DNA of 6,130 nucleotides from a virus. Lineage: Duplodnaviria > Heunggongvirae > Uroviricota > Caudoviricetes. Under the pieces are notes generated by a model. It did not search any database. It was given only the letters and a program-made list of their open reading frames with translations, and was not told the DNA's origin. The stretch lies in IMG/VR virus record IMGVR_UViG_2648501390_000008. One strand, written 5' to 3'. The stretch's first letter is position 1; each line of letters opens with the position of its first letter. The position numbers were made by a program, and so were the translations under genes. Below are positions 1 to 6,002 of this stretch, piece by piece.

Positions 1-1039
1 CCTGAGGTCCGGTTGCCCCCACCGGGCCAGCCGCACCTGTTTCTCCTTTCGGTCCCTGTGGGCCTGCCGGACCTGCCGCACCGGTATCTCCCTTTGGACC
101 CTGTGGACCTGCATTTCCCGTCAGACCGGTCTCTCCCCGCTCTCCCCTGTCGCCTTTCGGCCCCTGCGGGCCTGCCGGACCAGCATCACCTGCCGGTCCC
201 CGCTCACCGGTTGCCCCGACAGGACCGGTGTCGCCACGCTCTCCTTTATCTCCCTTCGGCCCCTGTTCCCCCTTTGGCCCGGGAGGTCCCACCACGGTGG
301 GGATTCGGTTTACGGCCTCTTCCGCCGCTATCCTGCTTTGTTCCGCTGACTGTGCGCTTTCTGCTGACTCCCGGGCTTTTTCTGTTGCGGTCGTTGCATC
401 CCTGGCTGCATTACCGGCTGCACTTTCTGCCATCTTTTTTGACAACTCAGCATCTGTTGCACTTTGTAATGACTCACTGGCTTTTTGAGCGGCCGCAGAA
501 GCCGAGGACGAGGACGCATCCTCTGACTGCTTTGCTGAGGCTGCACTTTCCGTCGCCTGCCGGGCTGACTCCGATGCATCCCCTGCAGAAGTCTCAGCAT
601 TTACTGCACTCTTTTCCGCCTGGCCGGCTGATATACCCGCATTCCTCGCTGACGTCTCTGCCTCTCCGGCATTCTTCTTCGCCTCCTCAGCGTGACGCGC
701 TGCCTCTTCCACCATCAGTTCAAAACGTCGCAGTGCCTCCGGACGGGCATCATCCTCCGTCATGGCACCGAGAAAATCATTCAGCGTACCGGGTTGAGAA
801 TCTTCATACACGGTGATGGTCCCGGCATGTGACGGCGGGAATCCCTCCACCAACAGAATAACGCTGTACTGACCGTACTCAACGTCCATACTGTAACGCC
901 CGGCTTCATCCGGATTTTCTGAGGCCAGCGTGTTCACCACCACAGTGGTACTGTTACGTTTTGCTTTCAGCTGGATTGTGCAGTTCTGTACCGGTTTTCC
1001 TGTGCCGTCTTTCAGTACACCTGAAATCTTTACTGCCAT
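1..1039 (-). CDS. stf: Side tail fiber protein Stf, N-terminal ~346 codons; the 3' end of the gene lies beyond the left edge of the window
   Basis: Hand translation of the minus strand from the ATG at 1039..1037 gives [20 protein letters not shown]..., then ...[29 protein letters not shown]..., which matches the lambda Stf N-terminus as I remember it. The frame stays open through the segments I translated (1039..981 and 790..2), with the last full codon at 4..2; 980..791 was not translated by hand. The gene is absent from the ORF track only because it has no in-window stop. It sits downstream of lom, as in lambda. Confidence 0.9.
2..289 (-). repeat. Collagen-like Gly-X-Y coding repeat inside stf (at least 96 consecutive triplets, continuing past the window edge)
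   Basis: Hand translation of the stf frame gives [96 protein letters not shown] with Gly at every third position. At the DNA level this is an imperfect 9-nt periodic repeat (ggNccNNNN on the coding strand). Confidence 0.85.
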
Positions 1040-1050
1040 ATTCACCCCAC

Positions 1051-1076
1051 AAAAAAGCCCGCCTGAACCGGCGGGC
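1051..1076 (-). terminator. Rho-independent terminator downstream of lom
   Basis: On the minus-strand RNA: a 7-bp all-GC stem (GCCCGCC / GGCGGGC, plus-strand 1057..1063 pairing with 1070..1076), a 6-nt loop, then UUUUUU (plus-strand A-tract 1051..1056). It lies between the lom stop (1104..1106) and the stf start (1039). Confidence 0.6.
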
Positions 1077-1103
1077 TGTCATAACACTGTGTTACCTGGC
1101 TAA

Positions 1104-1703
1104 TCAGAATTTATAACCGACACCCACGATGAAACCGTCAGTGCGCCAGTCACCACTGCCGGAGCCTTCATAAGCAATATCAATGGCCACGGATTCGGTC
1201 GGGTTAAACTGCACGCCAGCCCCCCACGCCAGAGACGTGTTGCTGTGGCGACCGTCATCACTTCCGGTCAGCACATCGTGCGTTTTCCCCTTGTTGTCAG
1301 TTACGCGGAGATAATCCCCGGAGAAAGTCGACACACGGCTGTAAGCCACACCCGCCATCGCATACGCGCTGAACCATTCATTCACGCGTACAGACGGCCC
1401 CGCCATCACGCTGAACCAGCGGTTACGCACGGAATCTTCATGCCAGCGGGTATCGCTGTAACGGGTAAGCTGGCGATTCTTGTCTCCTGCATAGCTGAAT
1501 GACGTCACCAGCCCCAGCGTGTCCGTAAATTCATAACGGTATTTCACGTTAATCCCGTTAAGATTATCGCTACCGGGAGCGTTCGTCCGGGCATGAAGAT
1601 ACCCCGCGCTCAGTGTGGACTGATGTTCAGACGCCCATGCAGGCGCACCGGATACGGACAGACAGATGGCTGCGGACAAAATGGCTGCACAAACTTTACG
1701 CAT
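1104..1703 (-). CDS. lom: Lom outer membrane protein (Ail/Lom/PagC-family beta-barrel), 199 aa
   Basis: The ORF translation [59 protein letters not shown]...[10 protein letters not shown] is near-identical to lambda Lom from memory. It has a Sec-type signal peptide ending AWA-S and a C-terminal aromatic residue typical of outer membrane beta-barrels. RBS GAGAGG lies ~6 nt upstream of the ATG. Position between J and stf is as in lambda. Confidence 0.95.
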
Positions 1704-1727
1704 AATTACCTCTCGCTTTTCTGCAAT

Positions 1728-1751
1728 AAAAAAGGCACCATTTCTGGTGCC
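1728..1751 (-). terminator. Rho-independent terminator between J and lom
   Basis: On the minus-strand RNA: stem GGCACCA / UGGUGCC (plus-strand 1734..1740 pairing with 1745..1751), GAAA tetraloop, then UUUUUUAUU (plus-strand A-tract 1728..1733). It starts 22 nt downstream of the J stop (1773..1775) and ends 24 nt upstream of the lom ATG. Confidence 0.6.
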
Positions 1752-1772
1752 CTTATATGGGTTATAACAATT

Positions 1773-4700
1773 TCAACGAATACTGATGCCGGAAGCGGCT
1801 TTTTTGGTCACAATCACCGTACAGTCGGTGATATTACCTGCCCACTGATTGCCTTTATGGAAAACCTTAAACTCCAGAGTGACGCTTCCCCTGCCACTCG
1901 GCATATCAATAACCGCACTGTAGCTACCGGGAATGGCCCCTTTAGTTTCTCTGGATGCGATTAATACACCGTTTTTGCGAACTTCAAAACCATAACCCGT
2001 GTAACTTGTACCTCCCGGGTTATTACCACTTCCCGGATAGCTATACGCTATTCCGTTAAAGATAATGGGCGGAATAATGATTTGACGGTCAAAGTTATGA
2101 TCATCGCTGATGGTGACTGTAACCGTCCCGTTTGGTGTTTCCGTGTTACCCCACGTACCAGCCTGTTTCGGAAATGATTTGGATACAGCTTTAACGAAAT
2201 CCCCTCTGACTTGGGTCGCCTCCAGCATGCCCTTAATCGTACAGTTTTCATTTACCGTGACATTGTTGAGCGTCCCGGCGTTCGCATTCACACTGCCACT
2301 GATATCCGCATTTTTAGCAGTCAGCTTTCCGTCCGGTGTCAGGGAAAATGCCGGTGGATTGCCACCGCTGGTAATGGTGGGGGCCGTCAGGCGTTTCAGG
2401 AACACGTCATTCATGAATATCTGATCGCCCTGACCAACAAACATCGGTTTTGTGTTGCCATTCGCAGGATTAACCATCGCAATCCTGTCCGCCGCCAGCA
2501 GCACCTGACTCTGCATGCCGTCAGGGGTGTTCTCAATACCGGCACCAATACCCGCGATATAAAGGCGTCCGTCCTGCATCTGCTGCAGCTTCACAGCCCA
2601 CATGCTGTTCAGGTTATTATTTGTATCAACCTGAACTTTCTGTATCTGCTGGATTGCCGCACTCTGGTCTTCCAGTTTTTTATTGACGGTCTGCGTGATT
2701 TCATTGCTGACATTCGTAATGGACGTCCTGATTTCAGCCAGGTCCGGCGCAAGCTGACCGTTATCAATCTGCGTCCACAGCTCCTGGGCCAGATGTGTTT
2801 TCCCGATTTCTCCTTTGAAAAAATCCAGGTAACCTTCCGCATCATCGCTCGCCTGACCGACAGCCTCCACGAATGCCGATTTGCCAACGGTGTTCACACT
2901 GCGGATATAAAAGTAATAATCATGGCCCGGTTTGATATTGATACTGGCGGCTATCCAGTACAGCGCCATACCAAGATAACGCGCGCTGGTTTCAACCTGC
3001 CGGATATCGGCAATCCGCTTTTCCGAGAACCAGAACTCAAACTGTACCGTCGGGTCATAAACAGCAAGATGCGGCGTGGCGGTTATCTGAAAATAGCCCG
3101 GCGTCAGCTCAATCTGTGACGGCGCTGCCGGTGCGGCAATCCTGAACGATACCGACGCCGGATCGCCCTGCTGCCCCCACGCATTTACCGCCCGGACTGT
3201 CAGCCTGTAGTTCCCCGGCGCCAGTTGCGTGAAGCGGTATGTGGTTTCCGCCGTCCGGGCCGTGCTGACCAGCCGCTCACTGCCGTCATCCGCGGCCACG
3301 GTCAGGCGAAGCATAAAACTCACGCCCTTCACCACCTTCGGCGTATCCCAGCGCGCCAGCACCTGATACTCCCCGCTGTCTGCGGTGACTTCGGCAGTCA
3401 GGTGCTGCACCGCTGGCGGCGTGACACCATTCACCGTGCCGCTCTGGTCGCCATCAAAGTGCGCCCCGTTATCCACGATAGCCTCTTTTTCAGGCACATG
3501 CTGCACGGCAGTGATAGCATACGTGCCGTCATCGTTCTCACGGATACTCACACAGCGGAACAGGCGCTGGCGCAACGTCGGCAACTTCAGCCCCCACACG
3601 CTGTATCCAGCAACACCGTCAGGAACACGGCTCACTTTCACCTGCACGCCGTCGGTGACGGACTGAACCTCCACGCTGACCGGATTGCCACTTCCGTCAA
3701 CCAGGCTTATCAGCGTGGTACCGGAGGATGGCAGCGTGATTTCACGGTCGAGCGTCAGCGTCCGGGTCTGGCTGTTCACCGCCAGCACACGACCACCGGT
3801 GCTGATACCGGCATAGTCATCATCACAGATTTCAACAACATCACCCGGTACATGGCGAAGCCCTTCTGCACCCACGCTGAAATCCACGGTCTGCGTTTCC
3901 AGCAGTTCCGTTTTAATCAGCCACAGCCCGGCGCGGTGTGCCTGCCCCCGACTGGTACAGCCAAAGGCATCCATCTTCGTGACATTACGACCATAACGGG
4001 CAATGGCCTGCGTATCCTCAACAAGCTCTGTCGCCGTCTCCCAGCCGTTGTCCGGGTCAATCCAGTTCACCTCAACGGCATTATGGCGGTCCTTCAGGGC
4101 GCTGAAGCTGTAGCGGAACGGCGCGCCATCATCCGGCATCACCACATTACTGCGGTTATAGGTCCACACCTTATCCGATGGCCGGTCCTGCACGAACGTC
4201 AGCGTCTGCCCGTTCCATACCGGCATACAGCGCATCGCCGAGCAGAAATCACTGAGCACATCCCACGCCTTGCGCTGTGTGGTCAGGTACGCATTACAGG
4301 TGATGCGCGGCTCCGTGCCGCCAGAGCCATCCGGTACCGACTGGTCGCAGTACTGGCCGATGACATACAGCGCCCATTTATCCACATCCGCCGCACCAAG
4401 ACGTTTCCCCATGCCGTAGCGCGGGTGGGTCAGCATGTCCCACAGACACCAGGCCATGTTGTCGCTGTACGCTGGCTTAAACGTTCCGTCCCAGATACCG
4501 CTGTATTGCCGCGTCTGCGGGTCATAGTTCGACGGCACCTGCAGAATGCGCCCGCGAAGATGATAATTACGGCTCACCTGCTGGCTGCCGAACTGCTCAG
4601 AGTCCACCTGCACGCCGACCAGTGCCGTGTTCGGGTAGCACTGTTTCACATCGATGATTTCGGTATACGAGGACCAGATTGTTTTGTTCTGCAGCTGGTC

Positions 4701-5270: not shown

Positions 5271-5292
5271 TCCTCACGCTCCATAAATGACA

Positions 5293-5312
5293 AAACCGCC
5301 CGCAGGCGGTTT
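5293..5312 (-). promoter_or_regulatory. Short GC hairpin in the I-J intergenic region (possible weak terminator, attenuator or RNA stability element)
   Basis: Plus-strand 5296..5300 (ccgcc) pairs with 5305..5309 (ggcgg) around a 4-nt loop, extendable by three A:T pairs (5293..5295 with 5310..5312). On the minus-strand RNA the stem is followed by UUUUGUCAUUU. Only 5 GC pairs, so the function is uncertain. Confidence 0.3.
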
Positions 5313-5330
5313 CACATAAAACATTTTGCA

Positions 5331-6002
5331 TCAGCGACCAATCACCACAACCTGACCACCGTCCCCTTCGTCTGCCGTGCTGATCTCCTGAGAAACCACA
5401 CGTGATCCCACGCGCATTTCACCGTACAGAACGGGCAGAACATTGCCCTGGGCAACCATGTTATCCAGTGAGGAGAAATAGGTGTTTTGTTTGCCGTTAT
5501 CCGTTGTCTGTGTACGGGGAGTTCTGGCTTTCGGTGCCAGCATCTGGGCCACACCACCGAGCACCATACTGGCACCGAGAGAAAACAGGATGCCGGTCAT
5601 ACCACCGGCCCCAATGGCTGCCCCCCACGCTGCAAGGGTGGCTCCGGCAGTAAAGAATGATCCGGCAATGGCGGCTGCTCCCAGGACAATCTGGAATACG
5701 CCACCTGACTTGGCCCCGGCGACTCTGGGAACAATATGAATCACAGCGCCATCAGGCAGAGTCTCATGTAACTGCGCCGTTAACCCGGACGTGCTGACGT
5801 CCCGCCCGGCAATCCGTACCTGATACCAGCCGTCGCTCAGTTTCTGACGAAACACCGGGACCTGTGTGGACAGTGCGCGGATGGCTTCAGCCCCCGTTTT
5901 CACACGAAGGTCGATGCGGCGGCCAAATCGTTGCAAATCCCCGTAAAGGCAGATGCGTGCCATGCCCGGTGACGCCAGAGGGAGTGTGTGCGTCGCTGCC
6001 AT
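5331..6002 (-). CDS. I: Tail assembly protein I, 223 aa
   Basis: ORF translation MAATHTLPLASPGMARICLYGDLQRFGRRIDLRVKTGAEAIRAL... is near-identical to lambda gpI from memory, with the same length (223 aa). Its start overlaps the 3' end of K by 103 nt, as in lambda. RBS-like GAGAGG upstream. Confidence 0.97.
   Translation of the reverse strand: MAATHTLPLASPGMARICLYGDLQRFGRRIDLRVKTGAEAIRALSTQVPVFRQKLSDGWYQVRIAGRDVSTSGLTAQLHETLPDGAVIHIVPRVAGAKSGGVFQIVLGAAAIAGSFFTAGATLAAWGAAIGAGGMTGILFSLGASMVLGGVAQMLAPKARTPRTQTTDNGKQNTYFSSLDNMVAQGNVLPVLYGEMRVGSRVVSQEISTADEGDGGQVVVIGR

Follow-up and report, generated by a model that had tools for sequence, protein, structure and literature searches.

The lom gene and its flanking terminator-like hairpins in the distal tail operon of a lambdoid phage

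Gene content of the window and its relatives

The window analysed here, a stretch of 6,130 nucleotides of viral DNA, carries the end of K, then I, J, lom and an stf-type gene, all on the minus strand and arranged as in the distal part of the lambda tail operon (Table 1). The Pfam matches of the J product (Phage-tail_3, Ig_J, FNIII-A_GpJ, Phage_Tail_Tip and Ig_GpJ_C) are all gpJ domains, and the product of the stf-type gene begins with the Pfam domain phage_tail_N ('prophage tail fibre N-terminal', the N-terminus of Stf; E 4.8e-69), followed by Pfam Collagen repeats. These domains confirm the position between J and stf that an earlier reading of the DNA, made from the sequence only, had assigned to lom. 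The first ~60 nt of the stf-type gene are 97% identical to lambda stf, and in the part that encodes its collagen-like G-X-Y repeats (window 1..~300, minus strand) the GC content is as high as 63-69%.

Over its whole 6.1 kb the window is 96% identical to phage cdtI, 95% identical to phage 434 and 94.5% identical to the best-matching E. coli chromosomes; since identity to the two phage records is only 96% and 95%, the DNA would come from a related mosaic phage or prophage and not from either of them. Around lom, the identity over 861 nt rises to 99.8% with phage cdtI and to ~97% (97.2-97.3%) with phage 434. Some part of the window is matched in 5010 of 5426 complete E. coli genomes, and by all of these comparisons the window derives from a mosaic lambdoid phage or prophage of a very common type. 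The location of lom at the J/stf junction and the terminators that surround it are already known, terminators being annotated in the records of phages 434, 21, mEp460 and Ayreon.

Table 1. Features of the window, along the tail operon, with the evidence on which each was assigned
Feature	Coordinates	Strand	Basis and remarks
I	6002..5331	(-)	ORF
Third terminator-like hairpin, between I and J, AAACCGCCTGCGGGCGGTTTTGTCATTT	5285..5312	(-)	folding; identical in lambda
J (tip attachment / host specificity protein), 1165 aa	1773..5270	(-)	ORF and Pfam
Upstream intrinsic-terminator-like hairpin and T-tract, AAGGGCACCAGAAATGGTGCCTTTTTTATT	1725..1754	(-)	scans, folding, covariation; assigned to the backbone
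Presence/absence segment (673 nt), made up of the 21-nt leader that holds the ribosome-binding site, lom and its 3' UTR, and the downstream hairpin together with the greater part of its T-run	1052..1724	(-)	junction comparison
lom ribosome-binding site GAGAGG, 5 nt before ATG	1709..1714	(-)	sequence; annotated ribosome-binding site in phage 434 record
lom, 199 aa, Ail/Lom family outer-membrane beta-barrel protein	1104..1703	(-)	ORF, Pfam and PHROG
lom, part coding for the signal peptide	~1703..1632	(-)	inspection
Downstream intrinsic-terminator-like hairpin and T-tract, AGCCCGCCGGTTCAGGCGGGCTTTTTT	1051..1077	(-)	scans, folding; assigned to the lom segment
5' part of the stf-type side tail fibre gene, which continues beyond the window	1..1039	(-)	Pfam

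The lom reading frame is intact, and its product matches the Pfam family Ail_Lom (PF06316) over its full length (residues 1-199 of 199; E 2.3e-121; 403.3 bits against a cut-off of 23) as well as PHROG 108, 'Lom outer membrane protein' (E 2.9e-110). Inspection of the translation by eye suggests a Sec-type signal peptide of 24 residues that ends in AWA, with cleavage between AWA and SE, and the C-terminus (...VGVGYKF) has the final aromatic residue, a phenylalanine, that is typical of outer-membrane beta-barrels. The description of lom in the sequence-only reading as an intact gene of the Ail/Lom family with a signal peptide is borne out. The comparison with Ail, PagC, OmpX and Rck that this reading recommended yields sequence matches in the PDB to lambda Lom (9wso, E 8e-51), OmpX (E 2e-19) and Ail (E 1e-18), whereas the NCBIfam models for Rck-type 'resistance to complement killing' and for OmpX score below their equivalog cut-offs (113.6 against 258 and 98.1 against 176, respectively), which indicates that the lom product is not an orthologue of Rck or OmpX. 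Chain C of 9wso is a solved structure of the 206-aa lambda allele, titled 'Outer membrane protein lom'. From its sequence homology to these solved structures, Lom of the window is predicted to be an eight-stranded beta-barrel of the Ail/OmpX type.

The ribosome-binding site of lom has an invariant GAGG core, and the two bases that precede the core are nearly invariant, among 18 distinct variants of the upstream sequence. GC content was used to look for a compositional anomaly of lom relative to its surroundings, and none is seen: the values are 55.5% for lom, 55.7% for J and 56.2% for the window, only the final 500 nt of J being lower (46.8%).

The Lom protein of the window is 100% identical to that of phage cdtI and 95% identical to that of phage 434, whereas its identity to lambda Lom, which has 206 aa against 199 aa here, is 47% in a multiple alignment and 44% by BLASTP. 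The sequence-only reading, which had it nearly the same as lambda Lom apart from a few positions, was thus mistaken on this point, and on these identities the gene is the cdtI/434/Stx-phage allele, the common non-lambda allele of lom. At least three allele classes occur among the IMG/VR loci: the 199-aa class found here, the class of lambda, and a class of 203-207 aa that is ~61% identical to lambda's. The DNA of the three classes is 13-70% identical through most of lom; from ~1196 onward (to 1000), a stretch that takes in the final ~30 codons of lom and its 3' UTR, then the downstream hairpin and the beginning of stf, it is 87-100% identical. This sharp mosaic boundary places the right-hand limit of allele replacement inside the 3' end of lom and not at the terminator, and with the boundary there, the segment defined by presence and absence of lom (described below) and the unit of allele shuffling differ.

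Hairpins of the tail-tip region

A terminator-like hairpin lies on each side of lom on the coding strand, at coordinates that agree to within 3 nt with those of the sequence-only reading (1728..1751 and 1051..1076). The upstream hairpin, on the J side, consists of AAGGGCACCAGAAATGGTGCCTT followed by TTTTATT (1754..1725, minus strand; 10 pairs, -15.6 kcal/mol); the downstream hairpin consists of AGCCCGCCGGTTCAGGCGGGCT followed by TTTTT (1077..1051, minus strand; 8 pairs, of which 7 are G-C). Both have the make-up of an intrinsic terminator, each being an intergenic, G+C-rich stem-loop with a T-run directly behind it on the strand that is transcribed; they occupy two of the three intergenic gaps of the window, and in both cases the T-run is absent on the opposite strand. 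Judged by sequence, both are putative intrinsic terminators, at which transcription would be predicted to end. The record of phage 434 annotates each of them as 'terminator', and that of phage 21 does so for the upstream one.

A loose terminator scan of the window, too permissive to be discriminating, gives 6 sites against 5.5 expected and hence no enrichment. A strict scan, which asked for T at 6 or more of 7 bases abutting a hairpin of -12 kcal/mol or better and took dinucleotide shuffles as the null, yields 3 sites where 0.1 are obtained per shuffle; the hairpins that flank lom account for two of the three. The third (~2646..2682, plus strand) is a hairpin with internal loops and a T-run, antisense inside J (-12.4 kcal/mol), and is probably due to chance. 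An Rfam scan of the whole window with E values up to 1 returned only two sub-threshold chance matches; one of them, to Trp_leader (21.7 bits, the gathering score being 41), was dismissed because it simply reflects the hairpin between lom and stf with its T-run.

The stem of the upstream hairpin covaries. Among 18 distinct versions of the J-lom spacer it carries paired substitutions (CACC/GGTG, CGTC/GACG and CGCC/GGCG), 96% of the cells of the alignment being paired and double changes occurring at 3 of 7 pairs; none of 500 shuffles reaches the observed score, and registers slid along the same stem pair at just 28-62%. The TTTTTTATTG tract behind the hairpin is invariant in these 18 versions. 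In lambda, an unrelated hairpin with a T-run, CGTCCGGGAACGGGCG, stands at the position of the upstream hairpin. Two IMG/VR loci have rearranged versions ~60 nt before lom: in L040 the loop reads ATTTCT instead of AGAAAT, an inversion that leaves the stem intact, and in L136 unrelated DNA joins inside the 5' arm, leaving a weakened hairpin (-8.6 kcal/mol). The 11-mer TTTTTTATTGC is found behind three hairpins, namely the upstream hairpin of the window (1725..1733, minus strand), the stem-loop that precedes the fibre gene of N15 and the lom terminator of phi24B; N15 (L150, 7040..7055) and phi24B (L155, 3090..3105) also share GGGTTTTTTATTGCCC. These identities could reflect chance or a shared junction sequence.

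The downstream hairpin adjoins the ribosome-binding site of stf. It is nearly invariant in all three lom allele classes, that of lambda included, and carries little covariation information: most single changes keep G-U pairing, a few break a pair, and the lambda copy, with several base differences, still folds. It is scarcely credible that the hairpins on the two sides of lom are chance inverted repeats or functionless leftovers of recombination joints. Such an origin would accord with the loose scan, which gives as many sites as the shuffles do, and with the L136 junction, located within the upstream hairpin's 5' arm, but it is contradicted by the excess of sites in the strict scan at two flanks of lom that are both intergenic and on the coding strand, by the covariation, by the occurrence of a different hairpin at the same place in lambda, and by conservation across hundreds of phage records.

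The hairpin between I and J was missed by the loose scan because its T-run is interrupted. Under its match to the window, the phage 434 record has three annotated terminators, one on each side of lom and one before J; terminators are likewise annotated directly before J in HK97 and N15, and directly before the fibre gene in N15. The hairpins of the tail-tip region lie ~10-25 nt ahead of the ribosome-binding site or start codon of each of J, lom and stf. Because a similar hairpin precedes J, hairpins appear to punctuate this operon generally, and bracketing by hairpins is not special to lom. In lambda, late transcription is carried out by Q-modified RNA polymerase, which reads through terminators. 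Hairpins placed before J, lom and stf, each ahead of a ribosome-binding site in an operon subject to such read-through, might instead serve mainly as RNA elements of the late transcript, where they would block 3' exonucleases or be sites of processing and in this way fix how abundant the I, J, lom and stf messages are relative to one another. The compensatory change in the upstream stem supports an RNA structure and is silent on its role; the invariant run of six T after each hairpin, however, is needed by an intrinsic terminator and not by a stability hairpin, and a role mainly in the late message is accordingly unlikely in our judgement, while the two roles are not mutually exclusive.

The lom segment and its transcription

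At least 29 lambdoid phage records lack lom and pass from J through the upstream hairpin and TTTTTTATT to the ribosome-binding site of stf; phage 21, Tritos, ev207 and several 'Lambda_ev' isolates are among them. These records come from an empty-junction search that matched 219 records, 29 of them whole, most of the other ~190 matching part of the junction only. Six distinct phages listed among the partial matches have the J-side half and a second matching place in the record, as expected with lom between.

With the query sequence, the match of some phages was confined to the end of J and the upstream hairpin. The limits of the segment were read by comparison of the window with the empty sites of Tritos, Lambda_ev087 and PhiR11_1_star. 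In all three the order is the J stop codon, TTATAACCC, GGGCGCCAGAAATGGCGCC, TTTTTTATT and TGTGGAGTGAGTATG, the last belonging to stf. The window equals the empty sites through TTTTTTATT, continues with GCAGAAAAGCGAGAGGTAATT-ATG, lom, the downstream hairpin and TTTTT, and resumes at TGTGGGGTGAATATG of stf. The boundary of the segment so defined is ambiguous by 1 nt (a T), and its junctions share at most one T. On this comparison lom is a genuine presence/absence accessory segment; the junctions would fit either an insertion of lom or its deletion between two T-tracts. The J-stf spacer of HK97 (L149, 6032..6240), which has no lom, holds 207 nt with a long inverted repeat, GGAAGGTGCGAATAAGT ... 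ACTTATTCGCACCTTCC.

The two hairpins differ in their relation to the segment. The downstream hairpin is absent from the empty sites and is therefore part of the lom segment. The upstream hairpin is found unchanged directly before stf in the phages without lom and therefore belongs to J and the backbone, where it is, by sequence comparison, the predicted terminator of the J/stf junction, present with or without lom. This removes one side of the insulated unit, bracketed by two terminators, that had been proposed for lom.

Morons in the sense of Juhala and Hendrix have, among their textbook criteria, a promoter of their own and a deviant GC content (PMC3594210). The moron architecture claimed for lom stands in so far as lom is extra DNA absent from collinear relatives (the 673-nt segment, against 29 records without lom) and brings its own terminator downstream (the hairpin and T6 at 1077..1051, absent from the empty sites), whereas it shows neither a deviant GC content nor, in sigma-70 scans with approximate matrices, a visible promoter. 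A consensus scan of the coding strand near lom for sigma-70-like promoters returned none, and the best score of a sigma-70 matrix scan over the 600 nt upstream of lom is 9.45, against 10.0 +/- 1.8 for the best of shuffled sequences; the matrices are approximate and restricted to sigma-70, such that weak, activator-dependent or alternative-sigma promoters would escape them. The leader, GCAGAAAAGCGAGAGGTAATT, is all that lies between the upstream T-tract and the ATG of lom, and these 21 nt are too short a stretch to house a promoter within the segment.

One candidate for a -10 element was rejected. The conserved TTATAACCC between the J stop codon and the upstream hairpin, which reads TGTTATAAC in the window, resembles an extended -10 element by eye; it ends in C, however, most variants lack the TG, phages without lom have the motif as well, and a transcript that started there would include the whole terminator. 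The best sigma-70-like site of the window (2893..2920, plus strand; TTCACA-16-AATAAT, 10 of 12) is antisense inside J and is also present in lambda J.

Published data on expression concern the lambda allele and the distant phi24B gene. Lambda lom is reported among the few genes expressed in lysogens (PMC7067206); its prophage expression was not seen in one array study, and according to one published study little is known on the regulation of the lambda lom promoter. A 2025 preprint that cites ribosome profiling describes a strong rise of Lom expression late in infection. The lom paralogue of phi24B shows the same expression in lysogens as in induced cells; we rejected it as a proxy for expression, since it is a 244-aa paralogue, 41% identical, that lies behind a 90-nt AT-rich region without an upstream hairpin, and the result is not transferable. 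A preprint on small RNAs of lambda was consulted for any sRNA with its end at the hairpins that flank lom, and the sRNAs described there lie elsewhere.

Expression in lysogens, as reported for lambda lom and for its distant phi24B paralogue, together with the nature of lom as a presence/absence gene with a terminator downstream, could point to a self-contained and insulated moron, with its own promoter and two terminators of its own, that is transcribed independently of the late operon and mainly from the prophage. We doubt this account. The upstream hairpin also occurs without lom and so is not part of such a unit; the T-tract is 21 nt from the ATG, and no promoter-like site rises above chance; the GC anomaly is absent; Lom expression is strongly raised in late infection; and the behaviour of the phi24B gene, 41% identical and set in another context, does not transfer. 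As the segment shows no visible promoter, the standard statement of lom as an independently transcribed moron is still without a mapped one.

We consider it likely that the lom segment is a promoter-less passenger, composed of a ribosome-binding site, an open reading frame and a terminator, that lies behind a backbone terminator following J and is read in the late transcript. The backbone would already have an intrinsic terminator directly after J, just before the stf ribosome-binding site, and with the lom segment (1724..1052) lodged exactly behind the T-tract of this terminator, one hairpin would come to lie on each side of lom. During lytic growth, by analogy with lambda, Q-modified polymerase would pass all three hairpins, and lom would be made with the tail genes. 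In the repressed prophage the hairpins would be expected to stop unmodified polymerase, the upstream hairpin keeping stray J transcription out of lom and stf, and the downstream hairpin keeping any lom transcription out of stf. Expression of lom in the prophage, if any, might come from a weak or non-canonical promoter, whose start must overlap or precede the upstream hairpin because there is no room inside the segment. Lom itself would be exported via Sec, inserted in the outer membrane and active at the cell surface.

A variant in which prophage expression of lom depends on regulated read-through from starts inside the 3' end of J, the upstream hairpin being a conditional attenuator and not an insulator, appears to us quite improbable; were it true, the upstream hairpin would set the amount of Lom made by a lysogen. 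The passenger arrangement, with a terminator that belongs to the backbone, remains the one that we favour. The earlier reading of this DNA is to be corrected in four respects: the allele, the ownership of the upstream terminator, the promoter, which is not visible, and the composition, which is not anomalous.

Comparison with known systems

Phages cdtI (NC_009514, gp19) and 434 (OL657226, CPT_434_22) have the same gene as the window in the same place. Lambda lom (NC_001416, 18965..19585) also resembles lom of the window in lying between J and stf, with a hairpin and T-run before it and a nearly identical hairpin after it; it differs in its protein, which is 44-47% identical, and in its upstream hairpin, which is unrelated in sequence. 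The data on expression and function all come from the lambda allele and not from that of the window. Lom is dispensable for plaque formation, and the activities reported for lambda's allele are adhesion and, on over-expression, the blocking of lambda infection; in a 2025 preprint, over-expressed lambda Lom blocks lambda-vir and not T7. Results obtained with lambda Lom should not be transferred untried to the cdtI/434/Shiga-toxin-phage allele. Ail of Yersinia, OmpX of E. coli, and Rck and PagC of Salmonella belong to the same protein family as Lom.

The morons of HK97 and HK022 (for example HK97 gene 15, gp22/gp23) are, like lom, extra genes of the late operon that are absent from collinear relatives and have a terminator right after them; unlike these morons, the lom segment has no recognisable promoter, no room for one, and a GC content that is not deviant. 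Genes 22, 23 and cor of N15 differ from lom in that they follow J with no intervening hairpin, and their proteins bear other names in the record. Like lom, they are accessory genes (of membrane or exclusion functions) at the junction of J and the fibre gene, and they too are followed by a stem-loop and T-run before the fibre gene. The junction after J is a place for accessory genes, taken by lom alleles here and by 22, 23 and cor in N15.
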